Part shown: piece after piece, positions 6,817-53,674 of the stretch
Numbering within the stretch: position 1 is the stretch's first letter
Layout of the letters: every line of letters begins with the position of its first letter
Origin: Bacilli bacterium
GTDB taxonomy: Bacteria; Bacillota_I; Bacilli_A; ML615J-28; CAG-313
Assembly (NCBI GenBank): GCA_045652765.1
Contig: JAZOLG010000020.1
Span: 69,633-133,632, forward strand
DNA: 64,000 bases
Direction of reading: 5' to 3'
Notes under the pieces: model-generated
The model's database searches: none
Told to the model about the DNA's origin: nothing
Seen by the model: the letters and a program-made list of their open reading frames with translations, nothing else
Made by a program: the position numbers and the translations under genes

Positions 6817-6845
6817 TTGAAATCATATCATAAAAGTGATATAAT
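6817..6845 (+). promoter_or_regulatory. Promoter of operon A (serine hydrolase-GNAT-deacetylase-GHL10)
   Basis: TTGAAA (6817-6822), 17-bp spacer, TGaTATAAT (6837-6845). The -35 element coincides with the TTG used as start in the ORF track, which argues for a later start codon. Confidence 0.6.
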
Positions 6846-6864
6846 ATATAAAATGGAGAAAAAT

Positions 6865-7956
6865 ATGAAACTTAAAGAACTAGAAAAATTAATTCAAAGC
6901 GGGGTTGAAAATGGTGCATTTCCGGGTGCAACCTTCGCTATTGTTTTTAAAGACATGATATATACCAACTTTGTTGGTAATAAAGCACTTTATCCAAATG
7001 TTGAGCCAAATAGCCTTGATACCATTTATGATATGGCATCATGTTCTAAAGTTATTTCAACTGCAAGTGGTATATTAAAACTAATTGAAACAGGCAAAAT
7101 TAGACTTTTTACAAAAGTATCTGAAATTATACCTGAGTTTATTCATAAAGATTTAACTGTATGGAATTTAGTAACACACACATCAGGACTTGTTGAATGT
7201 GTTCCAAACCATGCTAATATTAAAGACAGCAATGAGATATGGGAAAAGGTAATGAATGCTGATAAACCATATCCATCTAATGAACATATAAAGTACTCTG
7301 ATTTAAACTTTATTTTATTAGGTGAAATCATAAAAAGAGTAAGTGGAAAACCACTTGATGAATTTGTTAAATGTGAAATTTTCGATAAACTAGAAATGTA
7401 TGATACTGGATATAATCCAGAAGATATCAACAGATGTGCACCAACTGAAGAAAGAAACGATTTGGTTGTGCAAGGAATAGTGCGTGGTAAAGTACACGAT
7501 GAAACAGCATACACATTGGGTGGTGTTGCAGGTCATGCCGGACTTTTCTCAACCGCTAATGATACAGCAAAATTTATTCAAATGATTTTAAACAATGGAA
7601 CATATAAAAACACTCAGGTATTTCCAAAGTGCATTGTTGATATGATGTATACTCCGCTTGTTAAAGAACAAGTTGGGTTATCAGTTTTACCACTTCAAAG
7701 AAGTGTTGGTTGGATTATTAAAGATTACAATCCAGCGAGTGGAGATTTAGTAAGCAACAATACAATTCAACATACTGGATTTACCGGAACTAATCTTTGG
7801 ATTGACCGTGATAATGAGGTTGGATTCTGTTTATTAACAAATAGAGTACATCCAACAAGAAGTAATCTTAAACATATGGAACTTAGACCTAAGGTCGCAA
7901 ATTATTTAATTGCCAATTTAAAAGAAATAAGGGAGGAAATAAAAAATGCAAATTAA
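6865..7956 (+). CDS. Class C beta-lactamase-fold serine hydrolase, cytoplasmic (AmiE/YbbE-like candidate)
   Basis: SxxK motif (ASCSKV) and HTGFTGT near the C-terminus. No signal peptide. Start moved to the ATG at 6865 (GGAG 6 nt upstream) because the promoter overlaps the tracked TTG at 6817. Confidence 0.7.
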   Translation: MKLKELEKLIQSGVENGAFPGATFAIVFKDMIYTNFVGNKALYPNVEPNSLDTIYDMASCSKVISTASGILKLIETGKIRLFTKVSEIIPEFIHKDLTVWNLVTHTSGLVECVPNHANIKDSNEIWEKVMNADKPYPSNEHIKYSDLNFILLGEIIKRVSGKPLDEFVKCEIFDKLEMYDTGYNPEDINRCAPTEERNDLVVQGIVRGKVHDETAYTLGGVAGHAGLFSTANDTAKFIQMILNNGTYKNTQVFPKCIVDMMYTPLVKEQVGLSVLPLQRSVGWIIKDYNPASGDLVSNNTIQHTGFTGTNLWIDRDNEVGFCLLTNRVHPTRSNLKHMELRPKVANYLIANLKEIREEIKNAN

Positions 7957-8932
7957 ACAATTTAAATTAGCTGAACATAGTGATGTAGTATTAAACTTAT
8001 GGAATGAAGTAGTTAGTGAAAAAGATTTTTATTATCAATTCGATAAAGCTGGATTTGAATCTATGCTTTATAAAAATCCACACTTCAAAGAAGAAGGTGC
8101 ATTTGTAGCCTATGAAGGGGAAACATTAATTGGTTTTGCGGTTGGATTTATTCGTAATGAAGATATTGACAATCCTAATGCACCAGGATATTTTAATACA
8201 ATTGTTGTAAAAAAAGAATTTAGAAGACAAGGAGTTGGAACAGCTCTTTTAAATAGTGTTGAAGGATATTTTAAAGCTATGGGAAAAACTGCTTCTCGTT
8301 CAGTATTCTTAAGCCCTGTAAATTGGCCATGGTATATTCCTGGAACTAATCATCATAATCATCCAGGTGCACCTGCAATTCCTGTAAATAAACCTGAGTA
8401 TTTCTTCTTACTTCATAATGGCTATCACATGCAAGGTCAAATTGATGCTTTCCATTTAGACTTAGCAAAATTTGAAATGCCAGAAAATGTTTTAGCAAAA
8501 ATGAAAGAAAATGAAGAAAAAGGTTTAACTATTGAAGTTTTTGATCCAAATAAACACTATGGTGTTGACGAATTCTGTGAAGCAATTCAAAACCCAGGTT
8601 TTGCAAGATCAATCAAATATAATTTACAAAGAGAAGAACCAAGACCATTCTTAATTGTATCTGACAATAATAGAATGGCAGGATGGACTGGTCCAATGTA
8701 TACTGAATCAACTGGTCGTGGACATTTAGATGGAATTGCCGTTGATCCAAATGTACGTGGTGGTGGACTTGGTAAAGCATTATTCTGTAAACTTTGTGAA
8801 TATTCTAAAAATCAAGGTTCAAGTTTCATGACTTTCTTTACAGGTTTAGAAAACAAAGCTAGATATATATATTTAGCAGCCGGATTTGATATTATTCAAA
8901 CATTCGGTATTCTTAGAAAGGAATTAAAATAA
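7946..8932 (+). CDS. Double-domain GNAT family N-acetyltransferase
   Basis: Two acetyl-CoA binding motifs (RRQGVGTALL and VRGGGLGKALF). 328 aa. Overlaps the upstream gene by 11 nt. Confidence 0.7.
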   Translation: MQIKQFKLAEHSDVVLNLWNEVVSEKDFYYQFDKAGFESMLYKNPHFKEEGAFVAYEGETLIGFAVGFIRNEDIDNPNAPGYFNTIVVKKEFRRQGVGTALLNSVEGYFKAMGKTASRSVFLSPVNWPWYIPGTNHHNHPGAPAIPVNKPEYFFLLHNGYHMQGQIDAFHLDLAKFEMPENVLAKMKENEEKGLTIEVFDPNKHYGVDEFCEAIQNPGFARSIKYNLQREEPRPFLIVSDNNRMAGWTGPMYTESTGRGHLDGIAVDPNVRGGGLGKALFCKLCEYSKNQGSSFMTFFTGLENKARYIYLAAGFDIIQTFGILRKELK

Positions 8933-8933
8933 T

Positions 8934-9626
8934 ATGGCAAAAACTATTCTTGCGATTGGTGGTCACATCGGTGATGCCGAACTTACTGCAGGAGGTGTAA
9001 TGGCCACAAATGCTGTCCAAGGTGGAAAGAATTATACTTTAGCTTTAACAGCAGGTGAACGTGGTAATCCTGCCCACTTAACAGTAGCGGAATACAGAGA
9101 ACAAAAAATCAAAGAAGCAAATGAATTTGCTGAAATGATGAATGGTAAAGCTTATGTATTAAGATATCAAGATGGTGAACTTCCTAATAATGAAGAAGTT
9201 AGATATGAAGTAGCTAATATAATTAGAGAAGTAAGACCAGATGTAATTATTACACACTGGAAATCTACAATGCATAAAGATCACAACAATACACACTTAA
9301 TTGTACCTGATGCACAATTTTTAGCAAGTGTAGTTGAATGTGACAAGATCAAAGGTAAACGCCATTATGCTCCTGTATACTTCGCAGAAAACTGGGAAGA
9401 TGATTTAGATTTTGATCCATATATATATGTAGATATTACTCCTGGATATGATCTTTGGTGTAAAGCATTAGAAAAACATTGGTTTGTTATGAATAGTAAA
9501 GATTTTAAATATTTTGACTATTATACTTCTTTAGCAAGATGTAGAGGTTGTTTAAATAAAACAATGTATGCTGAAACATTCAATATACAACAAAGACAAA
9601 AAGTTAAAAAAGGAGGAATACTATAA
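8934..9626 (+). CDS. PIG-L/LmbE family N-acetylglucosaminyl deacetylase
   Basis: N-terminal ILAIGGHIGDAELTAGG and HKDHNNTH metal-site pattern, 230 aa. Start is 1 nt after the upstream stop. Confidence 0.65.
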   Translation: MAKTILAIGGHIGDAELTAGGVMATNAVQGGKNYTLALTAGERGNPAHLTVAEYREQKIKEANEFAEMMNGKAYVLRYQDGELPNNEEVRYEVANIIREVRPDVIITHWKSTMHKDHNNTHLIVPDAQFLASVVECDKIKGKRHYAPVYFAENWEDDLDFDPYIYVDITPGYDLWCKALEKHWFVMNSKDFKYFDYYTSLARCRGCLNKTMYAETFNIQQRQKVKKGGIL

Positions 9627-11974
9627 TGAAAAAAGCAATATTTGCAATACTAATTACTTTAACTTTAGTGTTTACATTAGGTGTTAAAGGTACATCAGCT
9701 GGAGCAACAGAAGATGTAATTATTAATGGTAGTAAAGTATATTATAATTACACAGGCAATACTGTTAAGGTTCCAGTAGAATATGTTGTTGACTCTTCAG
9801 AAATGCGTGGTGCTTGGGTTGCTACTGTTTGGAATAACGACGTTCCAAAACAAAAAGGTACAACTGAAGCTGCAATTGCTGAATATAAAGCATTTTATTT
9901 AGATATATTAGATACTCTAGAAAGTTATAATATGAATACAATTTTCTTCCAAGTTCGTCCAAATAATGATGCATTCTATGAATCAGAATATAACGATTGG
10001 AGTGAATTTTTAGTTGCACGTGGAGTTAATCCTGGTTGGGATCCACTTGAATGGATGATTGAAGTAACTCATGAAAGAGACATGTATTTCCAATGTTGGA
10101 TGAATGCATTCCGTGTTACTGTTGAAGAACAATGCTCTAATGATGCAATTGCTTATTCAGATGATGAATTAATTGCTAAAAAAGCAGCAGCAATTCAAAA
10201 TTTAAGTGCAAAGAATTTCGCAAAACAACACCCTGAATATGTATTAATGGGTGACTATGATTCTAAATTAATTTTAAATCCAGCAGAACTTGCTGTACAT
10301 GATCACTTACTTAATACAATTGGTGAGTTAATCACAAAATATGATGTTGATGGATTCCATTTTGATGATTATTTCTATCTAGATGCAAGATCAGCAGATA
10401 GAATTGATCCACAAACACAAAACCTAGCATTTGCTGGTGGTATTGAATATAAAGAAAAATTAACTGGTGTTAATATTTTAAATGACTTACCAACTTATAA
10501 AGATTATCAAGAAAATCCAAGCAAATATAATTTACCTGAAGGTTTAACTCTTGGTGAATTTAGAAGAAAGAGCCTTAATAATTTAATGGCTAAAATTAGA
10601 GAACTTGTTGATTCAGTAAATGAAGAATATGGAAAAGATGTTGAATTCGGATCTAAACCAGCTGCTGTATGGCAATCAAATTCAGAAAACTGTGCAGACA
10701 GTAGTCAAAAAGGTGCAGTAGGCGGATCTAATACACATTGCGGTGCGTATAGCTCAAACTATGATTTATTTGCTGACACAAAATATTGGGTTGAAGCAGG
10801 ATATGTAGACTGGATTAGTCCACAAGTTTATTACGATTTAGCTAACCGTATTGTACCATATGCTGACATTGTTTCATGGTGGGCTGATGTCGTTGTTAAG
10901 ACTAATGAAAAAAGAGCACAAGAAGGTTTAGAACCTATTAAGATGTATGTTGCACATGGTATTTATAAATATCACGCATCAAGTAGTGAATATAATGATG
11001 TAAATGAAGTAACTTATCAAATGCGATATAACCAACAATTTGATGTAATTAAAGGTTCTGCAATTTATGCATATAGTGATTTATACAAATTCCAAAATGA
11101 CATTCAAAAATTTGGTGTTGGTACGCACTTTAGATCATTATGGGTAACACATCCAGTATTACCACTTCCAAAAGGAGAAGTTGATTTTACAGATTTAATG
11201 ATTGATACATATAATGTCAAAGATACTGCAACTAAAAATAAATTTGATGTAAGTTTCCCTAAAATTGAAAATGCTAGTATGTATGCAATTTATCGTATTA
11301 ACAAGGGTGAAACATTAGATTTAAATGACACTAGAAATCGTATTTTAATTGTAAAAGATTATAAGTTCGATCAAAATATTGAATTTACAGTTTTATGCAA
11401 TGAAAATCAAGAAGTATATGTTCAAGCTGTTTCTGACAACTATATTCCACAATCATCTGCTGTAAAAATCGATTTTGAAAAAGCAAGCATTAACCAAGCT
11501 CCAAATCCGGTTGAGATTGTAATTAACAATGGCGAAGATGTTTTGGACGCAAGTGGCGTTTATACATTTACTTTCCCATACGCATTTGATGTTGATGGAG
11601 ATGAACTTAAATATAGTGTTAAAGTTGGATTTGAAGGTAAAAACGGACCAATTAGAACTCCTGCCAACAGCATTGAATATTTAGATGATAAAATTGTTGT
11701 AACATTTGAAGCATTTGGTATTGAAACTGAAAACTTTGTTGTTCAATTAACAATTGATGATGGAAGAGAACAAACAATTGTTTATAGTAAAGAAGTAAAA
11801 CTTGTCGATGACGGTGGTAAGGATCCAGTTGAACCAGATACTCCAGAACAACCTGAAACTCCGGAAAACCCATCTAAACCAGGTAACTCTGGTGGCGGTT
11901 GTCCAATGGGTGTTATGTATTTAACACCACTTCTTGGAGCTTTCACAATTTTGGTTGTTAAAAGACGTAAATAA
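9626..11974 (+). CDS. Surface-exposed GHL10 (glycosyl hydrolase-like 10, DigH/YngK family) protein with C-terminal Cys-tail
   Basis: Signal peptide MKKAIFAILITLTLVFTLGVKGTSAGA. GHL10 core RGAWVATVWNND...IFFQVRPNNDAFYESEYNDWSEF...NPGWDPLEW...WMNAFRV...DGFHFDDYFY. Beta-sandwich C-terminal domains. Tail GGGCPMGVMYLTPLLGAFTILVVKRRK. TAATG stop/start overlap with the upstream gene. Confidence 0.8.
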   Translation: MKKAIFAILITLTLVFTLGVKGTSAGATEDVIINGSKVYYNYTGNTVKVPVEYVVDSSEMRGAWVATVWNNDVPKQKGTTEAAIAEYKAFYLDILDTLESYNMNTIFFQVRPNNDAFYESEYNDWSEFLVARGVNPGWDPLEWMIEVTHERDMYFQCWMNAFRVTVEEQCSNDAIAYSDDELIAKKAAAIQNLSAKNFAKQHPEYVLMGDYDSKLILNPAELAVHDHLLNTIGELITKYDVDGFHFDDYFYLDARSADRIDPQTQNLAFAGGIEYKEKLTGVNILNDLPTYKDYQENPSKYNLPEGLTLGEFRRKSLNNLMAKIRELVDSVNEEYGKDVEFGSKPAAVWQSNSENCADSSQKGAVGGSNTHCGAYSSNYDLFADTKYWVEAGYVDWISPQVYYDLANRIVPYADIVSWWADVVVKTNEKRAQEGLEPIKMYVAHGIYKYHASSSEYNDVNEVTYQMRYNQQFDVIKGSAIYAYSDLYKFQNDIQKFGVGTHFRSLWVTHPVLPLPKGEVDFTDLMIDTYNVKDTATKNKFDVSFPKIENASMYAIYRINKGETLDLNDTRNRILIVKDYKFDQNIEFTVLCNENQEVYVQAVSDNYIPQSSAVKIDFEKASINQAPNPVEIVINNGEDVLDASGVYTFTFPYAFDVDGDELKYSVKVGFEGKNGPIRTPANSIEYLDDKIVVTFEAFGIETENFVVQLTIDDGREQTIVYSKEVKLVDDGGKDPVEPDTPEQPETPENPSKPGNSGGGCPMGVMYLTPLLGAFTILVVKRRK

Positions 11975-11984
11975 TAATAATATA

Positions 11985-12022
11985 AGCTTTTAAAGAATAA
12001 AATGTCTTTAAAGGCTTTTTTT
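11985..12022 (+). terminator. Rho-independent terminator ending operon A
   Basis: AGCTTTTAAAGA / TCTTTAAAGGCT stem (one G-U pair) followed by T7. Confidence 0.75.
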
Positions 12023-12038: not shown

Positions 12039-12067
12039 TTGAAAAAAACCTAAACTTATGCTATACT
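12039..12067 (+). promoter_or_regulatory. Promoter of operon B (dipeptidase-GHL10-GHL10)
   Basis: TTGAAA (12039-12044), 17-bp spacer, TGcTATACT (12059-12067). Confidence 0.55.
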
Positions 12068-12960: not shown

Positions 12961-15114
12961 ATGAAAAGAATAGTAACTGTATTGTTATTAGTTTTTACGA
13001 TTATGTTTTTCGTAAAAAAACCAAGTGTCAATGCTTTAGTAATTAATGATAGCTTGGAAGAATTAAGGGGAGTATGGGTATCTACTGTATCTAACATTGA
13101 TATTAGTAGACAAAATGGTGTTACAGAAAAAGCAATTAATGATTATAAAAATCAATTATTAGATATATTAAGTAAGGCAGAACATTATGGAATTAATGCA
13201 ATCTTTTTCCAAGTTCGTCCTTCAAATGATGCATTCTATGAATCAGAATATAATCCATGGAGTCAATATTTTTTCCAACATGGTGTGAATCCGGGATGGG
13301 ATATGCTTTCATGGTTAGCTGATGAATGCCATTCGAGAGGTATTGAACTACACGCTTGGTTAAACCCATATCGTGTAACTGCATCTCGTGTTGCAAGTTT
13401 TAGTGATGGCGAAGAAAAAATTAATCAAATTAAATTTAGTTTAAGAGCTCAAGCTCAAAGCTTATACCCAAATATTAATAATCCATTAAATATTCAAGAT
13501 GATGAAGAGTTTTTATCAACTGTTGTTTTAGGTGCTGAAGGACAAATGGTATTAAATCCTGCAAAGCAAGCAACAATTGATCATGTAACAAATACTATTG
13601 TTGAATTAATTGAAAATTATAATATTGATGGTGTTCACTTTGATGACTATTTCTATCCATCAGGTGGTATTGAATCAAAATACGATTCAGCTGACTATCA
13701 AGCGTATAAACAAAATGGTGGTAACTTAGGCGTTGAAGATTGGCGTCGTAATAATGTTGATAGAATGGTAAAAGCGGTAAGTGATGCAGTTCAAGCTTAC
13801 AACCAAAAGAATCCAGATCAATATACTGCATTTGGTATTTCTCCGGCTCCTGTTTGGGCGCCATCTGCAGAAAGATGTCCAGATGGTCGTGGTCAAGAAG
13901 GCGGTATGGATGTAATTTGTGGAAGTTATAGTACATATAATACTTTATATGCCGATACAAAGAAATGGGTTGAAGAAGAATGGTTAGATTATATTCTTCC
14001 TCAATCATATTCATCACTTGCTGAAAACTACAAAGAAATTGTTAGATGGTGGTCAAAAATTTGTGCACCAACTAAAGTAAAATTATATATTGGAACAGGT
14101 TATTACAAATTAGCTGAATCAAATGCTGATACATTTGGTAGTGCTTACGAAGTTGATAATCAATTTAAATATGTTAAAGATAACAATTATACAGAAGTTG
14201 ATGGATTTGTATTATTCTCTTATAAGAATTTAGAAACATCAACTGGAAATTTAGGATCTGCTAATGTACTTTTAAAGAAAGCATGGAATAGTGGAGCATT
14301 ACTTCCATCATATGAAGAAGTAAAACCAATTACAGAACTTCCAACTGTTGAATTAATTAAACTTGGAAACAAATATTATATGAGTTTTAATGAAGTTGAA
14401 AATGCTAACGGATATGCATTATATGCTGTTCCAAAAGGACAAGATGCCAACTTTAAAGCAGAAGGCGTTGTTGTACAAAAAATCTTTAATAAACTAGGAA
14501 CTGGCGCTAAACAACAATATAATGCATTAACTGATTATAGTATTAGTAACTATGATTTCTATATCAGAATTTTTGATAATTCAAATAAACCTATTGAACA
14601 AAGTGTTAAAATTGATTTTAACACTGCAATAGTTAACGAAGGCGCACAAATTGAAATCTTAGATTTTGTTGAAAAAGATTATAAAGTTGGCGAAACTATT
14701 AAAGTTCGTGCTCAAATTACATCTGATTTAGATTTACCATTAACTGTTACTATTAAAGTTCGTTATAATGGTGCTAAATATTCTACAACATTTAATATGA
14801 CTGAGGTTGAAGATGGCATTTATGAATATGAATTCCAAACTTTGATCGAAGCAACAACTCAATTAAAAATTGTTGTAAACGACACTGATACTGAAAAAGA
14901 ATTAGAACTTCCTGCCGTTGAAGTTTTAGAAAAAGTAGTAGAACACGTTCATGAATTTATTGATGGTGTGTGTGATTGTGGTGAAAAAGATCCAAATAGA
15001 GAACCGGAAGATAAACCATCAAATGGTGGTGGATCAAATTGTCCAATGGGATTTGTTTCTGTTTTACCATTAATGGCTGCGGCTACATTATTATTAATAA
15101 GAAAGAAAAGATAG
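12961..15114 (+). CDS. Surface-exposed GHL10 family protein (paralog 2) with HxHEF..CxCGE module and C-terminal Cys-tail
   Basis: Signal peptide. Core RGVWVSTVSNID...IFFQVRPSNDAFYESEYNPWSQY...NPGWDMLSW...WLNPYRV...DGVHFDDYFYP. Ends EHVHEFIDGVCDCGEKDPN...GGGSNCPMGFVSVLPLMAAATLLLIRKKR. Confidence 0.8.
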   Translation: MKRIVTVLLLVFTIMFFVKKPSVNALVINDSLEELRGVWVSTVSNIDISRQNGVTEKAINDYKNQLLDILSKAEHYGINAIFFQVRPSNDAFYESEYNPWSQYFFQHGVNPGWDMLSWLADECHSRGIELHAWLNPYRVTASRVASFSDGEEKINQIKFSLRAQAQSLYPNINNPLNIQDDEEFLSTVVLGAEGQMVLNPAKQATIDHVTNTIVELIENYNIDGVHFDDYFYPSGGIESKYDSADYQAYKQNGGNLGVEDWRRNNVDRMVKAVSDAVQAYNQKNPDQYTAFGISPAPVWAPSAERCPDGRGQEGGMDVICGSYSTYNTLYADTKKWVEEEWLDYILPQSYSSLAENYKEIVRWWSKICAPTKVKLYIGTGYYKLAESNADTFGSAYEVDNQFKYVKDNNYTEVDGFVLFSYKNLETSTGNLGSANVLLKKAWNSGALLPSYEEVKPITELPTVELIKLGNKYYMSFNEVENANGYALYAVPKGQDANFKAEGVVVQKIFNKLGTGAKQQYNALTDYSISNYDFYIRIFDNSNKPIEQSVKIDFNTAIVNEGAQIEILDFVEKDYKVGETIKVRAQITSDLDLPLTVTIKVRYNGAKYSTTFNMTEVEDGIYEYEFQTLIEATTQLKIVVNDTDTEKELELPAVEVLEKVVEHVHEFIDGVCDCGEKDPNREPEDKPSNGGGSNCPMGFVSVLPLMAAATLLLIRKKR

Positions 15115-16399: not shown

Positions 16400-16426
16400 A
16401 AGTAGTCTTTTTAAGACTACTTTTTT
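16400..16426 (+). terminator. Rho-independent terminator ending operon B
   Basis: Perfect 10-bp stem AAGTAGTCTT / AAGACTACTT, 3-nt loop, T-run. Confidence 0.85.
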
Positions 16427-16441: not shown

Positions 16442-16456
16442 ATGAAAGCGCTTGAA
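16442..16456 (+). promoter_or_regulatory. cre-like / LacI-family operator upstream of operon C
   Basis: aTGAAAGCGCTTGAa fits WTGNAANCGNWNNCW with one mismatch. It is centred about 27 bp upstream of the -35 element. Confidence 0.5.
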
Positions 16457-16475: not shown

Positions 16476-16504
16476 TTGAAAAAAATATGCGTTTTTGGTA
16501 TAAT
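16476..16504 (+). promoter_or_regulatory. Promoter of the 23-kb operon C
   Basis: TTGAAA (16476-16481), 17-bp spacer, TGgTATAAT (16496-16504). AGGAGG RBS lies before the ATG at 16549. Confidence 0.65.
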
Positions 16505-45861: not shown

Positions 45862-45877
45862 TTTGCTTTTTAAAAAG

Positions 45878-45910
45878 AAACACTATGTGAGAAATCACAT
45901 AGTGTTTTTT
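45878..45910 (+). terminator. Rho-independent terminator ending operon D
   Basis: 13-bp stem AAACACTATGTGA / TCACATAGTGTTT, GAAA loop, T-run. Confidence 0.85.
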
Positions 45911-45981
45911 ATTTTAAATAAAATACCTAAATACTTTAAAAATTCATAAAAATTTGGTAAAATATATAATGAGGTGATATT

Positions 45982-46659
45982 ATGAGTTTAGATAAAAAAT
46001 TAAATTCTAAAACATATCGTTTTTTTGATTATTTATTTGGACTAGTAGTTGTAAATTTATTTACAATTATATTATCAATTTTTATTATTACATTATTGCC
46101 TGCACTTACTGCTGCATACCAAACTGTTGCGGATTTTAAGGAAGTTGGCCCTAGCAAAGTACTTAGAATGTATTTTAGTAATTTTAAAAAGCATTTGGAA
46201 AAGTCATTTGTTATAGGATTATTTATAATAATAATAATAGTCTTAGCAAGTTTTTCAATGTATTTTTATAGTCATAGATTTGAAGCTGATAATTTTGTTG
46301 GTCAAGCAGGATATTGGGCAATGCTTGTTGTAATGTTGCTACTGCTTTTGTTTAGTTTGCATTTACCGCTTGTTATGATAAATTTTCAGACACTTGGAAT
46401 ACTTGATACAATAAGAATATCGATATTTATTTGTTTTAGATACTTTATATCAAGTTTAATCATTTTAGGTATGAATATTGTTATGTTAATAGGTGTACTT
46501 GCACTGCCAATATGGGTAGTAATTGGTATTAGTTTACCAGTGTTTTTAAGTATTAAGTTTACAGATGCAACTTATTACTATTTAAGAAAAATCGATTTAG
46601 AAAAAATAATACAAAGAGCAAAGGAGATTGAAGATGAAGAAGACGATTTTGGGAATTGA
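45982..46659 (+). CDS. YesL/DUF624 family membrane protein (paralog 2)
   Basis: N-terminus YRFFDYLFGLVVVNLFTIILSIFIITLLPALTAAY and multi-TM layout parallel ORF 32558-33247. GAGGTGA RBS. Confidence 0.65.
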   Translation: MSLDKKLNSKTYRFFDYLFGLVVVNLFTIILSIFIITLLPALTAAYQTVADFKEVGPSKVLRMYFSNFKKHLEKSFVIGLFIIIIIVLASFSMYFYSHRFEADNFVGQAGYWAMLVVMLLLLLFSLHLPLVMINFQTLGILDTIRISIFICFRYFISSLIILGMNIVMLIGVLALPIWVVIGISLPVFLSIKFTDATYYYLRKIDLEKIIQRAKEIEDEEDDFGN

Positions 46660-47782
46660 GAGAGTAGATGAATTTAAGGAATTTTTTGGAAACAAAAGAG
46701 TGGGATTAATTACTAATCCAACAGGAATTGATTCTAATTTTAAATCAAGTATTGATATCTTACTTGAAAAAACAAATTTAGTAGCATTATTTTCACCAGA
46801 ACATGGTGTGCGTGCAAGTATTCAAGCAGGTATGCATTTACCAACATATATTGATGAAGAAACTGGTTTAACAGTTTATAGTTTATATGGTAAATCTAAA
46901 AAACCAACTGAAGAAATGATGAATGCTATTGATGTAATGACAATCGATGTACAAGATTGTGGTTCAAGATATTATACTTTTATTTATACAATGGCATATT
47001 GCATGATGGCTTGTGCAGATTATAAAAAACCATTTGTTGTATTTGATCGTCCAAATCCAATTGGACTTGAAAAAGTAGAAGGTAATATTTTAGATATTAA
47101 ATATCGTTCATTTGTTGGATATTATCCAATTCCTCAACGTCATGGTATGACAATGGGTGAACTTGCTAAATTATTCAATGAGGAATTTGGTATCGGCTGC
47201 GAACTACATGTAATTGAAATGAAAAATTACGAAGCTTGGATGAGCTTTGAAGATACAAAATTACCTTGGGTAATCCCAACACCAAATATGCCAACTATTA
47301 ATACATGTTATGCATATAATACAACTTGTGTTTTCGAAGGAACTAATGTTGCAGAAGGACGTGGTACTACAACACCATTCGAAATTGTTGGTGCGCCATG
47401 GATTAAGAGTGAAGAATTCGCTAGACAACTTAATGCCTATAATTTAGAAGGTGTATACTTTAGACCACAATATTTTACACCAACATTCTCTAAATATCAA
47501 GGCGAACTTTGTGGTGGTGTTTATGTACATATAACTGATCGTGAAAAATTTAACACAATGAAAGCAAGTTGGGTTATGTTACATGTTATTAGAACTGAAT
47601 ATGCTGAACATTTCAAAGTAAATAAACCTTATGTTGAAGGACGTCCATCTTTATTTGAATTTGAAGTTGGTTGTGATTATATGATTGAAAATAGTTATTC
47701 ACTAGAAAAACAACTTGAAATCTTAGATCAAGATGCGGAAACATTTAAGAAAATAAGAAAACCTTACATGATTTATAAATAG
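46634..47782 (+). CDS. namZ: DUF1343 family exo-beta-N-acetylmuramidase (NamZ/YbbC-like), cytoplasmic
   Basis: RVGLITNPTGIDSNFKSSIDILL...LFSPEHGVRASIQAG is the DUF1343 N-terminal signature. No signal peptide. I prefer the ATG at 46634 (AAGGAG 7 nt upstream) over the tracked TTG at 46628. Confidence 0.75.
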   Translation: MKKTILGIERVDEFKEFFGNKRVGLITNPTGIDSNFKSSIDILLEKTNLVALFSPEHGVRASIQAGMHLPTYIDEETGLTVYSLYGKSKKPTEEMMNAIDVMTIDVQDCGSRYYTFIYTMAYCMMACADYKKPFVVFDRPNPIGLEKVEGNILDIKYRSFVGYYPIPQRHGMTMGELAKLFNEEFGIGCELHVIEMKNYEAWMSFEDTKLPWVIPTPNMPTINTCYAYNTTCVFEGTNVAEGRGTTTPFEIVGAPWIKSEEFARQLNAYNLEGVYFRPQYFTPTFSKYQGELCGGVYVHITDREKFNTMKASWVMLHVIRTEYAEHFKVNKPYVEGRPSLFEFEVGCDYMIENSYSLEKQLEILDQDAETFKKIRKPYMIYK

Positions 47783-47790
47783 GAGTTTTT

Positions 47791-48837: not shown

Positions 48838-48838
48838 T

Positions 48839-49774
48839 ATGAAACCATATTTTTTGTGTATGGAATCAGGTGGAACAAAAACGTTAACTTGTGGTATTGA
48901 TTTAGATGGTAATATTATTTATGAATATCATAATGGTGTTGGAAGTCCTGCTGTTGATTATGATTTAGCTCTTAAAAATATTTTTGAAGGTATTGAAAAT
49001 GTTTATAATACTTTAAAAAACCAATATGAACTTGTTTTTATTGAACTTGGCATTTCAGGGCTTGGTAGAGTTGATAACGTTGAATCTTTAAAAAATGACA
49101 TACACAATAAATATGGTGTTTCGGTTGATATTGTGACTGATGCTGAGATGAGTCTTCATTCAATATTAAAAAATGAAATTGATTATGGTATTTTAGTTGT
49201 CAGTGGGACGGGTAATGCGACTTGTGCAATCAACAATAATAAATTTATGATTGTTGGTGGTGGTGGCCAGTTACTAGATGAAGAAGGATCAGGATATTCA
49301 TTAATTCATAAATCCGTTTTAGAAATTAAAAGAAAATATGAACATGGTATAGAATATGATGAATATGATTTAGCCTTATTAAATTGGACTAAGTGTGTTG
49401 ATTTCCCGAATCTGAAAACATACTTTTATGCTCATACTAAATCAGAAATGGCATCTTTAGTATACAATGTTATGGATATTGTAAATAATCAAGATAACAA
49501 TACAAAACTTTACAAAATAGCCAAAAGCAATGTTCAAAAACAAGGCTTTTATTTAGCTACCCAAGTAACTACAATAACTAATACTCTAAAAATCCCTAAT
49601 GGCGCGATTTTGGGCCTTGTTGGCGGTTTTTGGCGTAATAATTCGGTTTTACTGGAAAGTTTTGAAATTAACTTAAAAAATAATAATAAAGATTTTAAAA
49701 TCGTAAATGTTGATTCTAATGCAGTAATGGGTTGTTATTATCTTGCAATTAGAAATTGGAGAAAAACATGTTAA
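48839..49774 (+). CDS. BadF/BadG/BcrA/BcrD-type ATPase family sugar kinase (GlcNAc/MurNAc kinase candidate)
   Basis: N-terminal ESGGTKT phosphate-1 motif and VVSGTGNA motif, 311 aa. Sits between the mupG-like and anmK genes. Confidence 0.6.
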   Translation: MKPYFLCMESGGTKTLTCGIDLDGNIIYEYHNGVGSPAVDYDLALKNIFEGIENVYNTLKNQYELVFIELGISGLGRVDNVESLKNDIHNKYGVSVDIVTDAEMSLHSILKNEIDYGILVVSGTGNATCAINNNKFMIVGGGGQLLDEEGSGYSLIHKSVLEIKRKYEHGIEYDEYDLALLNWTKCVDFPNLKTYFYAHTKSEMASLVYNVMDIVNNQDNNTKLYKIAKSNVQKQGFYLATQVTTITNTLKIPNGAILGLVGGFWRNNSVLLESFEINLKNNNKDFKIVNVDSNAVMGCYYLAIRNWRKTC

Positions 49775-50919
49775 TTAATGTACAAGATAAAGTATATAGT
49801 ATTGGTTTAATGAGTGGAACATCACTTGATGGTATTGATGTTTGTCTTGCGAGTCATCAAAACAATCATCATGAATTAATCGAATTCAGAAGTTATTCTT
49901 ATAGTGAGTCGCTAAAAGAAAAGATCTTAAAAGCTTCAAAGTTAGATACATCAAATGTTAGACTTATTTGTTCTTTAAATAAAGAACTCGGAATGGCATA
50001 TGTTGATGCTATTAACAAATTTTTAAAAGATACAAATACTAACATCGATGATATATCATTTATTGCGAATCATGGACAAACTATTTGGCATAATCCAGAT
50101 ATGTTGGATGGAACATTTCCATCAACACTCCAAATTGGTGATGCATCATATATAAGTTATACTTTTAATAAAACAGTGGTTTTTGATTTTAGAAGTCTTG
50201 ATATATCTGCAGGAGGCTGCGGAGCACCACTCGTACCAGTTATTGATTATTTGTTATTTAAAGATAAAGCACCAGCTATACTTTTAAATATTGGTGGTAT
50301 TAGTAATATTACATATATACCAAAATCAAAAAAACAAGAAGATGTTGTGGCTTTTGACACAGGACCTGGTAATATGTTAATTGATGGCTTAATGATGAGA
50401 CTTTACAATATTCCATATGATGAAGATGGCCGAGTTGCGTTAAAAGGAAAAGTGTCACAAGAGTTACTTAATATTTTAATGCAAGATGAATATTACGATT
50501 TAGACTATCCAAAGTCAACTGGAAGAGAAAAGTATAATGAAGCATATATAGACAATATTATAAATTTATCCAATGAATTAAAACTAAAAAAAGAAGATAT
50601 TATTAGAACTGTTACTATGTTGACAGCGTCTGCTATTAAATATCAAATAAAGAAATTTTTCAAAGATTTTGATGGAGTTTTAATCCCAGCTGGTGGTGGA
50701 TGTAATAATCCAGTTATAATGAAAGATTTAGAATCAAATGATTATCAATTACAAAAGATCGATGATTATAATATATCTGCTGATGGAAAAGAAGCATATG
50801 CTTTTTCGATATTAGGATATCTTCGACTTACTAATCAAGCTAGTAACTTAAGAAGTGTTACTGGAAGTAAAGATAACTTATCACTTGGTAGTATAATTTT
50901 ACCGCCAGTTATTAAATAG
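49768..50919 (+). CDS. anmK: Anhydro-N-acetylmuramic acid kinase
   Basis: IGLMSGTSLDGIDV signature near the N-terminus, FDTGPGNMLID, and about 380 aa. I prefer the ATG at 49768 (GGAG 6 nt upstream) over the tracked TTG at 49756. Confidence 0.9.
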   Translation: MLINVQDKVYSIGLMSGTSLDGIDVCLASHQNNHHELIEFRSYSYSESLKEKILKASKLDTSNVRLICSLNKELGMAYVDAINKFLKDTNTNIDDISFIANHGQTIWHNPDMLDGTFPSTLQIGDASYISYTFNKTVVFDFRSLDISAGGCGAPLVPVIDYLLFKDKAPAILLNIGGISNITYIPKSKKQEDVVAFDTGPGNMLIDGLMMRLYNIPYDEDGRVALKGKVSQELLNILMQDEYYDLDYPKSTGREKYNEAYIDNIINLSNELKLKKEDIIRTVTMLTASAIKYQIKKFFKDFDGVLIPAGGGCNNPVIMKDLESNDYQLQKIDDYNISADGKEAYAFSILGYLRLTNQASNLRSVTGSKDNLSLGSIILPPVIK

Positions 50920-50928
50920 GAGAATAAA

Positions 50929-51834
50929 ATGAGTATTAATATAAAAAATATTACAACAGAAGGAAGAAACGAACTAACAAGAGGAATTGATCAATTAAAT
51001 TCTTTAGAAATTGTTCGTTTGATTAATAATGAAGATAAAACAGTACCACTAAGTGTAGAATGTGCACTTGAACAAATTGCGGCTTTAGTAGATGCAATTG
51101 TGGAAAAATTAAGAGTTGGTGGAAGACTTATTTATATGGGTGCTGGAACAAGCGGAAGAATTGGTCTTTTAGATGCTGTTGAGTGCCCTCCAACTTATGG
51201 TGTATCGGATGAGCAAGTAATGTGTTTACTAGCAGGAGGACGCGATGCATTCTCAAAAGCAGTAGAAGGTGCCGAAGATAGTAAAACATTAGCAGTTGAA
51301 GATTTAGATTTTGTTAATGTTAACGAAAAAGACGTGATTGTTGGTATTGCAGCTAGCGGAAGAACACCATATGTTATTTCTGGTATTGAATATGCTAAAA
51401 GTAAAGGTTGTATAACTGGCTGTATTGTTAATGCAAAAAACAGCGTTATGGCAACACTTGTTGATTTTCCAGTAGAGGCTGTAACAGGCTCTGAAGTAAT
51501 AAGTGGATCTACGCGTATGAAATCAGGAACTGCCCAAAAGCTTATTTGTAATATGATTTCAACAGCAACAATGGTTAGACTTGGACACGTATATAAAAAT
51601 TTAATGATTGATTTAAAAGCAACAAATGAAAAATTAGTTGCTCGTCAACTTGGAATAATTGCTGAAGTATGTGAATGTGAAACAGATAAAGCTAATGAAC
51701 TATTACAAAAATATGGAACTGTTAAAAAAGCAATTTTTGCATATCTTGCAAATATTGATTGTCCAAAACAAGCTGAAGAAATTTTAGCAAGAAATGATAA
51801 TCACATTCAAAAAGCATTAAAGGAGATTAAATAA
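50929..51834 (+). CDS. murQ: N-acetylmuramic acid 6-phosphate etherase
   Basis: TEGRNELTRGIDQL, SIS-domain GRLIYMGAGTSGRIGLLDAVECPPTYG and GSTRMKSGTAQK motifs. 301 aa. Confidence 0.92.
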   Translation: MSINIKNITTEGRNELTRGIDQLNSLEIVRLINNEDKTVPLSVECALEQIAALVDAIVEKLRVGGRLIYMGAGTSGRIGLLDAVECPPTYGVSDEQVMCLLAGGRDAFSKAVEGAEDSKTLAVEDLDFVNVNEKDVIVGIAASGRTPYVISGIEYAKSKGCITGCIVNAKNSVMATLVDFPVEAVTGSEVISGSTRMKSGTAQKLICNMISTATMVRLGHVYKNLMIDLKATNEKLVARQLGIIAEVCECETDKANELLQKYGTVKKAIFAYLANIDCPKQAEEILARNDNHIQKALKEIK

Positions 51835-52568
51835 TGATTAAACTTGTTGAACTTAAAAAAGAATATACATTACGTGGTATCTATAATGAAGTAGATAATT
51901 CAAGAGGTTTAGTAGTAATGTTCCATGGTTTTACTGGACATTTAAATGAAAATGGATATTTATTTAAAGTATTATCAGATGAACTTGCAAAAAATGGTTT
52001 TAGTTCACTTCGCTTTGACTTTATGGGAAGTGGAATGAGTGATGGATACTTCAAAGATATGACATTTAGAACAGAACTAACTGATGCAATTAATATTATA
52101 GAATATGCAATAGAAATTAAAAAAGATCAACCATTAATCGTACTAGGATTCTCAATGGGTGGCGCAGTAGCTGGATGTATGAGTAGTCATTTCCAAAATA
52201 GAATTGACAAACTAATTCTTTGTGCACCAGCAGGATGTATGGATGAACATGCAAGAGCATATTTTGAAAGATCTACAAGATGGGTAGATGACAGAAATAT
52301 TGATATGGGTGGATATTTAATGTGCTTAGATTTCGCCGATTCATTTAATGGATTAGATTTATTTGGTGGCATTGAAAACTTTACAAATCCGGTATGTATT
52401 ATTCATGGTGAAGCAGACCAATCCGTTCCAATTGAATATGGTAGAAAATATGCATCAATCTATAAGAATGCTGAATTCCATCAAATTGATGGTGCATCAC
52501 ACTGTTATACAGATGTAAAACATAGAAAACAATTTAATGAACATGTTATTAATTTCTTAAACAAATAG
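51834..52568 (+). CDS. Alpha/beta hydrolase (esterase/lipase fold)
   Basis: Nucleophile elbow GFSMGG, HG oxyanion motif (MFHGFTG), C-terminal His (GASHCY). TAATG overlap with the murQ stop. Confidence 0.7.
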   Translation: MIKLVELKKEYTLRGIYNEVDNSRGLVVMFHGFTGHLNENGYLFKVLSDELAKNGFSSLRFDFMGSGMSDGYFKDMTFRTELTDAINIIEYAIEIKKDQPLIVLGFSMGGAVAGCMSSHFQNRIDKLILCAPAGCMDEHARAYFERSTRWVDDRNIDMGGYLMCLDFADSFNGLDLFGGIENFTNPVCIIHGEADQSVPIEYGRKYASIYKNAEFHQIDGASHCYTDVKHRKQFNEHVINFLNK

Positions 52569-52606
52569 AGTACAGCACATTAATAATAATAAAGTTCTGG
52601 TGAAAA

Positions 52607-53674
52607 ATGAAAAAATTATTTCTTATTATTATCATTTTATTATTTAGTTTTACTCTAATTGCATGTGATACTAACAAGTCAATAGAACAAGCAGACATCG
52701 ATAATAGTGATTTAGGTTTGGTTATCGAAAAGGAAATTGAATTAGGTGAAGAACGAGAATCAGTTATTTTAAATATCGATGGTACAGAAGTTTTAGTTGA
52801 TGATAATTATTCATTTAGAGAACTATATCGTATTATACCTGAATTTAATAACAATAATTCTGGATTATATTCATATGATATTGAATATAGAATAGATGAT
52901 GAAATTCCTAATTACACCAATGTAAATGTCTATAATTATAATGAATATCAAGATAATTATCAAATAGAAAGAACATATGAAGTAGCAAGATCAAAAGATC
53001 AAAATTCAAAACACATTTATAAAGCTGAAACTTATTATTTTAATCAAGTTGACACTGCCAATCTTTATCAATTTATCAAACACACTTTTGAAAAAAGACT
53101 TTACAAAAATGAAATGTCTTTTTGTGGAACTGTGGTTAATACATTTAAATCAAATCCACATACTCTTTATTCTAATAAAAATATTCCTACAAGTCCAGAA
53201 AGGGAAACTGATTTGTTGTCTATGACACTAAAGTCTCAAAGAGCTCAAAAGTTAAAAATATTGATGCTATTTGAACAGTTTGATTCGTTTGAATTCGAAG
53301 GAAATACATATGAATTCAATAGTTATATTACATCAAATTTTAAAATATACGATAATTATATTGTTTTCAAAGAAATAACACCATTTTACAAAGGTGAGTG
53401 GATCGCAAAATCTGAGTGGTACTATTGGTACCAAAGTTGTTTGAATAATGATTTATTGGTTACGCAAGAAGCATATTACAATATTTCGACTGGAAAAATT
53501 GATCATGTCAGAGTATATGGTAAAATAGTTGATTTTTTCCATTATTCTAGATTCGAGCCTTCTACGATTGAAATTGATATAAAATTATACATTCATAATT
53601 TTAAAATAGATGAATACGATAAGAAAGTTTCTCGTTTAGTTAGATACATTAAATTGAAGTCAAATAATTTATAA
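52607..53674 (+). CDS. Lipoprotein of unknown function
   Basis: Lipobox FTLIAC. Asn/Tyr-rich 355-aa protein with no recognised domain. No terminator separates it from the upstream gene. Confidence 0.5.
   Translation: MKKLFLIIIILLFSFTLIACDTNKSIEQADIDNSDLGLVIEKEIELGEERESVILNIDGTEVLVDDNYSFRELYRIIPEFNNNNSGLYSYDIEYRIDDEIPNYTNVNVYNYNEYQDNYQIERTYEVARSKDQNSKHIYKAETYYFNQVDTANLYQFIKHTFEKRLYKNEMSFCGTVVNTFKSNPHTLYSNKNIPTSPERETDLLSMTLKSQRAQKLKILMLFEQFDSFEFEGNTYEFNSYITSNFKIYDNYIVFKEITPFYKGEWIAKSEWYYWYQSCLNNDLLVTQEAYYNISTGKIDHVRVYGKIVDFFHYSRFEPSTIEIDIKLYIHNFKIDEYDKKVSRLVRYIKLKSNNL

Follow-up and report, generated by a model that had tools for sequence, protein, structure and literature searches.

A probable peptidoglycan utilisation locus of five adjacent operons, conserved in a lineage of reduced-genome, low-GC Bacilli

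Peptidoglycan is among the largest organic carbon and nitrogen pools in guts, digesters and sediments, and to our knowledge dedicated loci for its catabolism are known only as small recycling operons. The closest described system is the murQ-murR-murP-amiE-nagZ-namZ (ybbC) operon of Bacillus subtilis, which includes a gene for NamZ, a family with exo-β-N-acetylmuramidase function (PMC8054146). Parts of the same chemistry are found in the MurP-MupG-MurQ route of Staphylococcus aureus (PMC6262408) and in the scavenging of foreign peptidoglycan by Tannerella forsythia (PMC5790795; bioRxiv 10.1101/2021.12.02.470905). Here we describe a cluster of about 47 kb, with 31–32 co-oriented genes in five units, that lies in a 64,000-nucleotide stretch of contig JAZOLG010000020.1 of a Bacilli bacterium (GCA_045652765.1; the whole stretch is called the window below). 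We consider it probable that the cluster is a lineage-conserved, multi-operon peptidoglycan utilisation locus of reduced-genome, low-GC Bacilli, whose relatives are found in metagenome-assembled genomes (MAGs) labelled Bacilli, Acholeplasmataceae and Erysipelotrichaceae.

The G+C content is about 30% across the window. The list of open reading frames (ORFs) holds 32 of them on the plus strand from 6865 to 53674, encoding 220–1153 residues, and the opposite strand has only small shadow ORFs, in agreement with a first-pass annotation made from the letters alone. Spacing between neighbours runs from -32 to +49 nt, with exceptions of 115, 159, 194 and 120 nt at the four unit borders. Each of these large gaps contains a strong hairpin with a T run followed by a promoter-like site, so the earlier division into five units by four internal terminators holds, as does the description of unit 3 as 14 tightly spaced genes (-17 to +29 nt). 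Hidden Markov model (HMM) searches also bore out the families that the first-pass annotation had named, namely NamZ, MupG, AnmK, MurQ, glycoside hydrolase family 3 (GH3) NagZ, NagB, GHL10, NAGPA, GH20, M19 and the β-lactamase fold. Pfam gathering scores are exceeded by NamZ, MupG, all three GHL10 and both NAGPA proteins, GH20, GH3, M19, PIG-L and DUF5696. The genes that carry the proposed pathway inside the cell are listed from the etherase end of the cluster backwards; MurNAc is N-acetylmuramic acid and GlcNAc N-acetylglucosamine.

50929–51834 (+), unit 5: g30, MurQ, MurNAc-6-phosphate etherase; TIGR00274 350.6 bits (cut-off 302), NF003915 391.7 bits (cut-off 168)
49756–50919 (+), unit 5: g29, AnmK, anhydro-MurNAc kinase; Pfam 332.3 bits, NCBIfam equivalog NF007148 416.3 bits (cut-off 387)
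48839–49774 (+), unit 5: g28, BadF-type sugar kinase, MurK-like; Pfam PF01869 42.8 bits
47791–48837 (+), unit 5: g27, MupG, 6-phospho-N-acetylmuramidase; Pfam MupG_N 193.7 and MupG_C 92.9 bits, both domains present
46628–47782 (+), unit 5: g26, NamZ (GH171) exo-β-N-acetylmuramidase, no signal peptide; Pfam NamZ_N 284.6 and NamZ_C 157.1 bits
51834–52568 (+), unit 5: g31, α/β hydrolase (esterase or peptidase); Pfam Abhydrolase_1 and Hydrolase_4
43247–44230 (+), unit 4: g23, second tandem-GNAT protein, GlmA-like, 327 aa; Pfam, paralog of g02
38849–39574 (+), unit 3: g21, NagB, glucosamine-6-phosphate deaminase; TIGR00502 298 bits (cut-off 236.9)
37264–38838 (+), unit 3: g20, GH3 NagZ-type β-N-acetylglucosaminidase, predicted cytoplasmic; Pfam PF00933 261.6 bits, KHFPGHGDTAVDSH motif (NagZ Asp-His)
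16549–18414 (+), unit 3: g08, GH20 β-N-acetylhexosaminidase, predicted cytoplasmic; Pfam PF00728 and PF02838, GH20 matches in the PDB
15118–16389 (+), unit 2: g07 (GHL10c), predicted cytoplasmic GHL10 protein, 423 aa; Pfam 201.8 bits
12090–12959 (+), unit 2: g05, compact M19 dipeptidase, predicted cytoplasmic; Pfam PF01244 210 bits, HxD metal motif at residues 7–9
8934–9626 (+), unit 1: g03, PIG-L/LmbE-type de-N-acetylase, predicted cytoplasmic; Pfam PF02585 75.9 bits, BshB1-like below the cut-off
7946–8932 (+), unit 1: g02, tandem-GNAT acetyltransferase, GlmA-like, 328 aa; Pfam GNAT in two stretches
6865–7956 (+), unit 1: g01, β-lactamase-fold serine hydrolase, predicted cytoplasmic; Pfam PF00144 160.8 bits, SCSK (SxxK) at residue 59

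The kinase g28 has as its top PDB match, over its full length, 8ZO3, an 'N-acetylmuramic acid/N-acetylglucosamine kinase' (E 2.5e-12), and a weak NagK match in NCBIfam (34 bits against a cut-off of 370). The best PDB match of g02 is the 5KF1/5KGH family, also of 328 aa (E 6e-8, residues 16–287); 5KF1 we take to be GlmA of C. acetobutylicum, a glucosaminide N-acetyltransferase, and g02 is on these grounds a candidate glucosamine or glucosaminide N-acetyltransferase. Its paralog g23 is kept at 44–82% identity in relatives. For g01 the top NCBIfam match is PBP4B at 146 bits (cut-off 385) and the PDB matches are generic esterases and D-peptidases; we treat it as a candidate MurNAc-L-Ala amidase or D-peptidase of AmiE/PBP4B-like type, and it is retained at 49–54% identity in loci L091–L098. 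The best-conserved protein of unit 1 is g03 (68–80% in L091–L096). The M19 protein g05 aligns only to profile positions 103–315, and we considered that it might be truncated at the N-terminus; the HxD motif at residues 7–9 argues for a complete, compact form. The D271–E272 pair of g08 is invariant in the GH20 alignment (A4), and g20 scores 188 bits against the NF003740 cut-off of 207. The hydrolase g31 ends unit 5 in relatives as well (47–51% identity in L169 and L170).

Residues 24–404 of the predicted cytoplasmic GHL10 protein g07 align with the Cwp19 catalytic domain from C. difficile (PDB 5OQ2, E 2.5e-80), so the family assignment of the first-pass annotation stands and its choice of DigH as the characterised relative does not, Cwp19 being closer. 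Cwp19 is a GHL10 lytic transglycosylase and autolysin that frees 1,6-anhydro-muropeptides together with some hydrolytic products (PMC6016235). Release of such products would give AnmK a substrate and hence a rationale for its presence in the cluster; conversely, AnmK is circumstantial support for the release of 1,6-anhydroMurNAc products by g07 and by its surface paralogs g04 and g06.

These two paralogs belong to a second group of genes, whose products are predicted to be exposed or to lie in the membrane.

9626–11974 (+), unit 1: g04, surface GHL10 protein (Cwp19 family), 782 aa; Pfam PF02638 132.9 bits, signal peptide and C-terminal Cys/transmembrane/basic anchor
12961–15114 (+), unit 2: g06, surface GHL10 protein, 717 aa; Pfam PF02638 189.6 bits, signal peptide, one His/Cys repeat, Cys/transmembrane/basic anchor
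24229–26112 (+), unit 3: g12, exported NHL-repeat (β-propeller) protein with C-terminal transmembrane anchor; Pfam NHL 27.7 bits
26113–26775 (+), unit 3: g13, Yip1-domain polytopic membrane protein; Pfam PF04893 51.3 bits
26788–30249 (+), unit 3: g14, DUF5696 protein, 1153 aa, predicted extracellular with N-terminal membrane anchor; Pfam PF18952 392.7 bits
33249–37256 (+), unit 3: g18 and g19, surface NAGPA-domain 'phosphodiester glycosidase' paralogs; Pfam PF09992 63.5 and 69.8 bits (cut-off 25)
39769–43197 (+), unit 4: g22, surface protein of no known family, 1142 aa; C-terminal Ig/cadherin-like repeats, Cys/transmembrane/basic anchor

Topology was predicted from a simple hydropathy test and from the N- and C-termini, not with SignalP. 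By this test g04, g06, g12, g14, g18, g19 and g22 are exposed and membrane-tethered; g09, a large binding protein, is also membrane-anchored, and g24 and g32 are lipoproteins. NamZ, NagZ, GH20, GHL10c, the AmiE-like g01, M19, both GNAT proteins, PIG-L, MupG, the kinases, MurQ and the hydrolase g31 have no signal peptide. The first-pass annotation had placed fragmentation of the wall in surface enzymes, which fits the two GHL10, the two NAGPA and the DUF5696 proteins; it does not fit NamZ, NagZ, GH20, g01 and GHL10c, which we read as cytoplasmic because they have no signal peptide. The predicted arrangement is one in which the polymer is cut outside the cell and oligomers enter through two ATP-binding cassette (ABC) systems, to be broken down further by exo-enzymes in the cytoplasm.

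Five of the exposed proteins share the same C-terminal tail (encoded at 11880–11974 in g04, 15020–15114 in g06, 35170–35261 in g18, 37165–37256 in g19 and 43100–43197 in g22), which consists of a G-rich stretch with a conserved Cys (GGGxC[PAN]xG), one transmembrane helix and four K/R residues. The Cys is conserved in homologs, at 90% or more in column C635 of the NAGPA alignment (A1) and also in the A3 consensus. Against the curated NCBIfam sorting-domain models (LPXTG, GlyGly-CTERM, MYXO-CTERM and others) the tails gave no significant match, the sub-threshold ones being Loki-CTERM, Heimdall-CTERM and NPXTG (E 0.05–0.1). In this lineage the tail may act as a sorting or lipid-anchor signal not described before. 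Directly N-terminal of the anchor in g06 (~14950–15020), g18 (~34960–35130) and g19 (~37015–37120) there are one to three tandem copies of a motif of about 23 residues, HEHEF(V/I)DGxCECGEKDPN, which looks like a small metal-binding knuckle. On the minus strand, two terminator-like matches that are nearly identical (35005–35026 and 35074–35095) were set aside as merely the DNA of these repeats in g18.

The transport genes, with two lipoproteins, complete the cluster.

18407–21829 (+), unit 3: g09, membrane-anchored protein, 1140 aa, with a C-terminal family-1 sugar-binding protein domain; Pfam SBP_bac_1 at residues 701–1005, N-terminal transmembrane segment
21848–24216 (+), unit 3: g10 and g11, permease pair of ABC system A (CUT1-type); Pfam BPD_transp_1, NCBIfam UgpA/E-like and MalF/G-like
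30251–32528 (+), unit 3: g15 and g16, permease pair of ABC system B; Pfam BPD_transp_1, NCBIfam
32558–33247 (+), unit 3: g17, DUF624/MusI-like accessory membrane protein; Pfam PF04854 22.6 bits (cut-off 24.2), weak NCBIfam MusI match
45982–46659 (+), unit 5: g25, DUF624/MusI-like accessory membrane protein; Pfam PF04854 34 bits, weak NCBIfam MusI match
44248–45861 (+), unit 4: g24, lipoprotein, 537 aa, LVGC lipobox; no Pfam match
52607–53674 (+), unit 5: g32, lipoprotein of no known family, 355 aa; co-transcribed by position

The first ~700 residues of g09 match no family; the protein is kept at 37–50% identity in L088–L108. MusI belongs to an ABC sugar importer as an accessory subunit in the membrane, and g24, whose position before DUF624 and NamZ is conserved in relatives, is presumed to be the solute-binding protein of system B. 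The first permease of each pair (21848–23200 and 30251–31495; 450 and 414 aa in total) carries a long extra N-terminus, such that BPD_transp_1 begins past residue ~170–250, which is unusual for CUT1 permeases. The last gene, g32, is not conserved, is missing after the hydrolase in L169 and is probably not part of the system.

From family membership, topology, operon anatomy and conserved co-localisation we infer the following substrates and order of steps. Membrane-tethered enzymes would attack the polymeric wall outside the cell: the two Cwp19-type GHL10 proteins would cleave the glycan strands and, in part by acting as lytic transglycosylases, leave 1,6-anhydroMurNAc ends, the two NAGPA proteins and the GH129/GH101-like DUF5696 protein would strip sugar-phosphate or α-linked decorations, and the NHL propeller and the 1142-residue Ig-repeat protein would bind the substrate. 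Muropeptide or glycan oligomers would then be brought in by the two CUT1-type importers, system A with the 1140-residue binding protein and two permeases and system B with two permeases, the MusI-like DUF624 proteins and the 537-residue lipoprotein, both energised by a shared ATPase encoded elsewhere. In the cytoplasm GHL10c, NamZ, NagZ and GH20 could dismantle the glycans from their ends, with the GlmA-like GNAT proteins re-acetylating glucosamine residues and so enabling the hexosaminidases, and the AmiE/PBP4B-like hydrolase and the M19 dipeptidase would remove and split the stem peptides. The MurK-like kinase and AnmK would yield MurNAc-6-phosphate (MurNAc-6-P), MupG would split MurNAc-6P-GlcNAc, and MurQ would give GlcNAc-6-phosphate (GlcNAc-6-P) and D-lactate. 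De-N-acetylation by a NagA encoded elsewhere or by the PIG-L enzyme, followed by NagB, would lead to fructose-6-phosphate, so that the expected end products are fructose-6-phosphate, D-lactate and amino acids.

The same enzymes could instead turn over and recycle the wall of the producing cell, as autolysins coupled to recycling; the tethered GHL10 and NAGPA proteins would then act on the inner face of its sacculus, and the products would be re-imported. A MurC-like ligase gene lies 4 kb upstream of the cluster with its nucleotide-binding and ligase motifs intact, and the organism probably builds peptidoglycan. This gene (1827–3029) encodes a short protein of 400 aa that scores 244 against the TIGR01082 cut-off of 335 and keeps GTHGKTTT, DYAHHP and FQPHTYSRT. 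Membrane anchoring would keep the enzymes close to the surface of the cell that makes them. Recycling is also the role of the known models, MurK and GlmA of C. acetobutylicum among them. The B. subtilis operon is one such system (PMC8054146), and Cwp19 itself is an autolysin (PMC6016235). The pathway ends, however, in NagB and catabolism, with no AmgK/MurU-type salvage route and no Mpl; two importers and seven exposed proteins would be a very large investment for recycling; and related modules occur in L009, L028 and L029 (Acholeplasmataceae-labelled genomes and Acholeplasma granularum), from a group treated as peptidoglycan-deficient (PMC10868615). The catabolic end-point, the large scale and the modules in Acholeplasma-type genomes favour scavenging as the main role, and we hold recycling as the explanation to be unlikely; uses on own and foreign wall could coexist.

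To ask how far the cluster is kept as a whole, loci were collected with a NAGPA homolog search, a scan of GTDB genomes with the NAGPA alignment, a metagenome scan with the GH20 alignment and a search for g22 homologs, and the resulting 170 loci were annotated by tblastn with all 32 window proteins. Units 3, 4 and 5 are adjacent and colinear in five loci (L001, L003, L168, L169 and L170, with g22 homologs at 86, 43, 34, 40 and 30% identity, respectively), and units 3 and 4 are colinear to the end of the fetched flank in L009, L010 and L025 (Acholeplasmataceae, Bacilli and Erysipelotrichaceae MAGs). Units 1, 2 and 3 are colinear in five others (L091, L092, L094, L095 and L096; GH20 at 41–45% identity). 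The claim of a single supercluster whose units co-occur in relatives is therefore upheld for these two overlapping blocks, and fails in that the adjacency of unit 1 varies and g32 is not conserved. About 60 more distant GH20 loci, which serve as a background control, contain none of the cluster genes, and the association is accordingly not general to GH20 neighbourhoods. Among single genes, g12 is syntenic in L003, L005, L008, L009, L025 and L088–L108, g13 adjoins DUF5696 in every related locus, and g22 keeps its position in 10 loci. The carriers come from digesters, sediments and guts.

Three loci argue for function over inherited order. In L029 (Acholeplasmataceae) a compact version forms one same-strand run of DUF5696, two permeases, DUF624, NamZ, GH3, BadF kinase, MurQ, one further gene and NAGPA. 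Locus L098 has the rearranged order Dus, a diaminopimelate (DAP)/Orn decarboxylase fused to M19, AmiE-like hydrolase, GNAT, LD-carboxypeptidase (S66), GHL10c, QueH, GH20, large binding protein and permeases, of which the LD-carboxypeptidase and the DAP decarboxylase are specific to murein stem peptides. In L168 NagZ and NagB are fused (7541–9829, 762 aa); this fusion and that of L098 (1725–3914, 729 aa) both connect consecutive steps of the proposed pathway. Right after the compact run of L029 (11312–14720) come genes for electron-transfer flavoprotein β and α and a FAD-linked oxidase of D-lactate dehydrogenase type, which suggests coupled oxidation of MurQ-derived D-lactate.

These comparisons also bear on whether five unrelated leading-strand operons merely lie side by side. 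Co-orientation reaches the unrelated upstream genes and tracks GC skew, neither a shared operator nor a regulator was found, and the neighbourhoods of L088, L089 and L097 lack unit 1, all of which would suit an accident. Against it, the gene set is kept in more than 15 loci at 25–50% protein identity, including rearranged and compact versions, gene fusions span steps, and the enzymes make up a chemically continuous pathway. We consider accidental adjacency very improbable.

The extracellular part of unit 3 raises another question, that of the polymer. An AF2 model of g14, built from 43 homologs, has a pLDDT of 86.9 and a pTM of 0.83, and its C-terminal 700 residues match GH129, GH101, GH36 and GH31 structures with Foldseek probability 1.0 (E 1e-20 to 1e-12; TMt 0.57–0.61 for 5OPQ and 5WZN) at a sequence identity to the GH129/GH101-like structures of 8–12%; a sequence search of the PDB gave no match. 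The GH129 structures are a 3,6-anhydro-D-galactosidase (5OPQ, E 1e-20) and the Bifidobacterium α-N-acetylgalactosaminidase NagBb (5WZN, E 5e-17). Five acidic columns, D559, D688, D725, D976 and D991, are conserved in DUF5696. On the strength of the model, g14 is predicted to be a glycosidase of GH129/GH101/GH36-like fold, likeliest acting on an α-linked sugar. The NAGPA paralogs g18 and g19 are 50% identical, both have the His/Cys repeats and the Cys/transmembrane/basic anchor, and the LDGGGS and NGDF motifs are invariant in alignment A1. The NAGPA prototype is reported to cleave GlcNAc-α-1-phosphodiesters (PMC13474241). Our literature searches on DUF5696, on Acholeplasma with MurQ and on bacterial NAGPA function turned up nothing relevant, including no bacterial NAGPA member with a shown substrate. 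The surface protein g22 has no Pfam, NCBIfam or PDB sequence match; its AF2 model (pLDDT 82) finds Foldseek relatives for the C-terminal Ig/cadherin-like repeats only, and it might be a substrate-binding or scaffold protein.

It is thus conceivable that only unit 5 and parts of units 1 and 2 handle murein, and that units 3 and 4 harvest another hexosamine polymer (teichoic acid or a secondary wall polymer, poly-N-acetylglucosamine or another exopolysaccharide, chitin, or a host glycan), their adjacency reflecting convergence on GlcNAc-6-P and NagB. The nearest folds of DUF5696 are α-N-acetylgalactosaminidase, endo-α-GalNAc-ase and α-galactosidase families, the substrate of the NAGPA prototype just given points the same way, GH20, GH3 and NagB are generic GlcNAc enzymes, and L098 has a GH18 fragment at its edge. 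In Acholeplasma granularum a partial module of GntR, NAGPA, GH20, Ig-repeat surface protein, DUF624, large binding protein and permeases, with a ROK kinase, has no MurNAc genes within 10 kb. Yet L029 puts DUF5696, the permeases and NAGPA in one tight run with NamZ, the MurK-like kinase and MurQ, the order of units 3, 4 and 5 is held down to 30% identity, and L098 sets the LD-carboxypeptidase and DAP decarboxylase beside the head of unit 3. A role on host glycans only is at odds with carriers from digesters and sediments as well as guts. We regard a separate polymer for units 3 and 4 as rather unlikely; if that polymer were wall-attached teichoic acid or its linkage unit, the proposal would merge with peptidoglycan utilisation.

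Several observations weigh against peptidoglycan utilisation as we have drawn it. Neither NagA nor an ABC ATPase was found among the window ORFs, in line with the first-pass annotation; for CUT1-type importers, which use shared ATPases such as MsmX and MsmK, an ATPase outside the locus is normal. The known substrate of MupG comes from import by a phosphotransferase system (PTS), and there is no PTS in the window; kinase action or natural MurNAc-6-phosphate sites are candidate sources. The AmiE-like g01, the kinase, the GNAT and NagZ fall below NCBIfam equivalog cut-offs, so their exact specificities are putative. Fold relatives of NAGPA and DUF5696 act on α- or phosphodiester-linked sugars, linkages that are absent from the peptidoglycan backbone, so part of unit 3 may act on non-murein material. 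A k-mer comparison of the five upstream regions for a shared operator returned promoter elements only, and co-regulation of the five units is unsupported. In L088, L089 and L097 uvrC, an exonuclease and a Wzy-like gene take the place of unit 1 before unit 2, which makes the linkage of unit 1 variable. The metagenome contigs L002 (12731–17347) and L001 (14549–22037) encode an identical NAGPA protein; in L002 a 1150-residue surface protein is followed by gidB, with no GNAT, solute-binding protein, DUF624 or NamZ. Either the strain has lost units 4b and 5, or the assembly is chimeric. Finally, all cluster-bearing loci belong to one broad lineage, and some of the synteny may be inherited and not selected.

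A more specific proposal, which we put forward only tentatively and think unlikely to hold in all its parts, is a murein utilisation locus for feeding on the whole Gram-positive wall of other bacteria, in which NAGPA uncovers MurNAc-6-phosphate, DUF5696 is a new glycoside hydrolase family and the shared tail is a new sorting or lipid-anchoring signal. NAGPA would cleave the GlcNAc-α-1-phosphate linkage unit through which teichoic acids or other polymers are attached to O6 of MurNAc, and the MurNAc-6-phosphate left in the strand, once imported, would be the substrate of a MupG that works without a PTS. DUF5696 would then target an α-linked wall decoration, and the users would include relatives of wall-less Acholeplasma.

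The signals that delimit the five units are as follows.

6774–6805 (+): terminator at the left cluster border, closing the cysK/cysE-like genes; 13-pair stem and T run
6817–6845 (+): unit 1 promoter-like site, TTGAAA-17-TATAAT with TG; 11 of 12 matches
11984–12017 (+): terminator between units 1 and 2; hairpin and T run
12039–12067 (+): unit 2 promoter-like site, TTGAAA-17-TATACT with TG
16400–16422 (+): terminator between units 2 and 3; hairpin and T run
16476–16504 (+): unit 3 promoter-like site, TTGAAA-17-TATAAT with TG
39586–39627 (+): terminator between units 3 and 4; fold -20.4 kcal/mol, z -5.0, none of 200 shuffles as stable
39694–39722 (+): unit 4 promoter-like site, TTGCAA-17-TATAAT with TG
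45875–45910 (+): terminator between units 4 and 5; 16-pair stem
45935–45963 (+): unit 5 promoter-like site, weak, TTTAAA-17-TAAAAT with TG
53682–53705 (both strands): bidirectional terminator at the right cluster border

A promoter-like element after each terminator, weak before unit 5, had been described and is seen here, the other four with TG-extended -10 elements; such matches are not enriched over shuffled sequence, so the sites are backed by position alone. Since the TTG at 6817 falls within the promoter, g01 most likely starts with the ATG at 6865.

There is no regulator gene between 6.8 and 53.7 kb, and an Rfam scan gave no riboswitch or leader in the cluster. The cre/LacI-type pattern TGNAANCGNTTNCA has 5 matches at one mismatch against 2.75 expected, a number equalled in 15 of 100 shuffles; among the unit promoters, only those of unit 3 (site at 16443–16456) and unit 4 (flanked by sites at 39685 and 39728) have such matches nearby. 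Since these are within chance and no operator is shared, we claim no regulon. Two regulators nearby were considered and rejected: the upstream LacI gene (3105–4130) encodes a CcpA-like protein, and tyrS, cysK and cysE stand between it and the cluster; the HTH_3 gene downstream shows no homology to the one that follows the hydrolase in L169.

The left flank holds the MurC-like ligase, the CcpA-like LacI regulator, tyrS, cysK and cysE, and the right flank PadR, trpS with a T-box, a GH5 gene, spx, clpP and others; as these are housekeeping genes, the limits of the cluster are sharp. The seven genes upstream of the cluster share its plus-strand orientation, and the GC skew keeps a positive sign from 1 to 54 kb, so co-orientation is weak evidence. 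The skew turns negative at ~54 kb (53700–62000), exactly where gene orientation switches, which could be a replication-related landmark or a plain strand-bias effect. On the minus strand, a T-box leader (58739–58931; 106 bits against a gathering score of 93) precedes the trpS-like gene (57701–58699), and a GH5 'cellulase' family gene (58967–60343, 458 aa) is found among the housekeeping genes, 5 kb downstream of the cluster.

If peptidoglycan utilisation is indeed the function, the locus would be the most complete genetic blueprint to date for consuming the bacterial cell wall, tying lytic-transglycosylase-type cutters and two importers to a full end-pathway for MurNAc, GlcNAc and peptides. 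It would offer a testable context for the orphan families DUF5696, bacterial NAGPA, the Yip1/NHL pair, the DUF624/MusI-like proteins and the 1142-residue protein, and a possible explanation for MupG where a MurNAc PTS is missing. Because the relatives include Acholeplasma-like lineages, it would also bear on the livelihood of genome-reduced, partly wall-less Bacilli. The literature searched contained no description of the locus or of DUF5696. Systems like its core, formed by unit 5 together with NagZ and NagB, are known; from the Bacillus-type operon it departs by the predicted cytoplasmic exo-enzymes, the ABC uptake, the combination of AnmK with Cwp19-type cutters and the conserved uncharacterised families.

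Set beside the B. subtilis operon (PMC8054146), the cluster shares MurQ, NamZ, GH3 NagZ and a β-lactamase-fold hydrolase in the position of AmiE, and with them the exo-wise dismantling of glycans that feeds MurNAc-6-P to the etherase. It lacks the two defining features of that operon, the MurP PTS and the MurR regulator, as the first-pass annotation had noted: no PTS or RpiR/HTH_6 family occurs among the window ORFs. AmiE, NagZ and NamZ are secreted in B. subtilis, whereas g01, g20 and g26 have no N-terminal hydrophobic segment and would act after import. The B. subtilis operon has 6 genes against 31–32 here, about 10 of the present families are absent from it, and uptake here would be through two ABC systems.

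A second likeness is to the kinase route of the type attributed to C. acetobutylicum, with its BadF-type kinase (8ZO3) and 328-residue tandem GNAT proteins (5KF1 family), which is PTS-independent and phosphorylates the sugars after uptake. The similarity of our proteins to MurK and GlmA is remote (E 2.5e-12 and 6e-8), and the present locus has two GNAT copies, surface enzymes and a far larger extent. Cwp19 of C. difficile (PMC6016235; 5OQ2) has the same GHL10 catalytic domain as g04, g06 and g07, but is a CWB2-anchored autolysin, whereas here two copies carry the Cys/transmembrane/basic anchor, the closest copy is predicted to be cytoplasmic and all three stand in catabolic operons. The S. aureus route (PMC6262408) likewise has MupG and MurQ side by side; there a PTS makes MurNAc-6P-GlcNAc, and here the window has no PTS gene.

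Scavenging in T. forsythia (NamZ1/2, MurT, MurK and MurQ; PMC5790795, bioRxiv 10.1101/2021.12.02.470905) also draws on foreign peptidoglycan, by way of NamZ, a kinase for MurNAc and the etherase. That organism belongs to the Bacteroidota, however, uses an MFS-type transporter to serve MurNAc auxotrophy, and is without the set of GHL10, NAGPA, DUF5696, GlmA and AnmK. In architecture the cluster resembles the polysaccharide utilisation loci of Gram-positive bacteria, in which depolymerases are exposed, permeases work with a solute-binding protein and exo-glycosidases inside the cell feed central metabolism; it differs from these in having no cognate regulator in or beside the locus and in a target that is apparently the bacterial cell wall.

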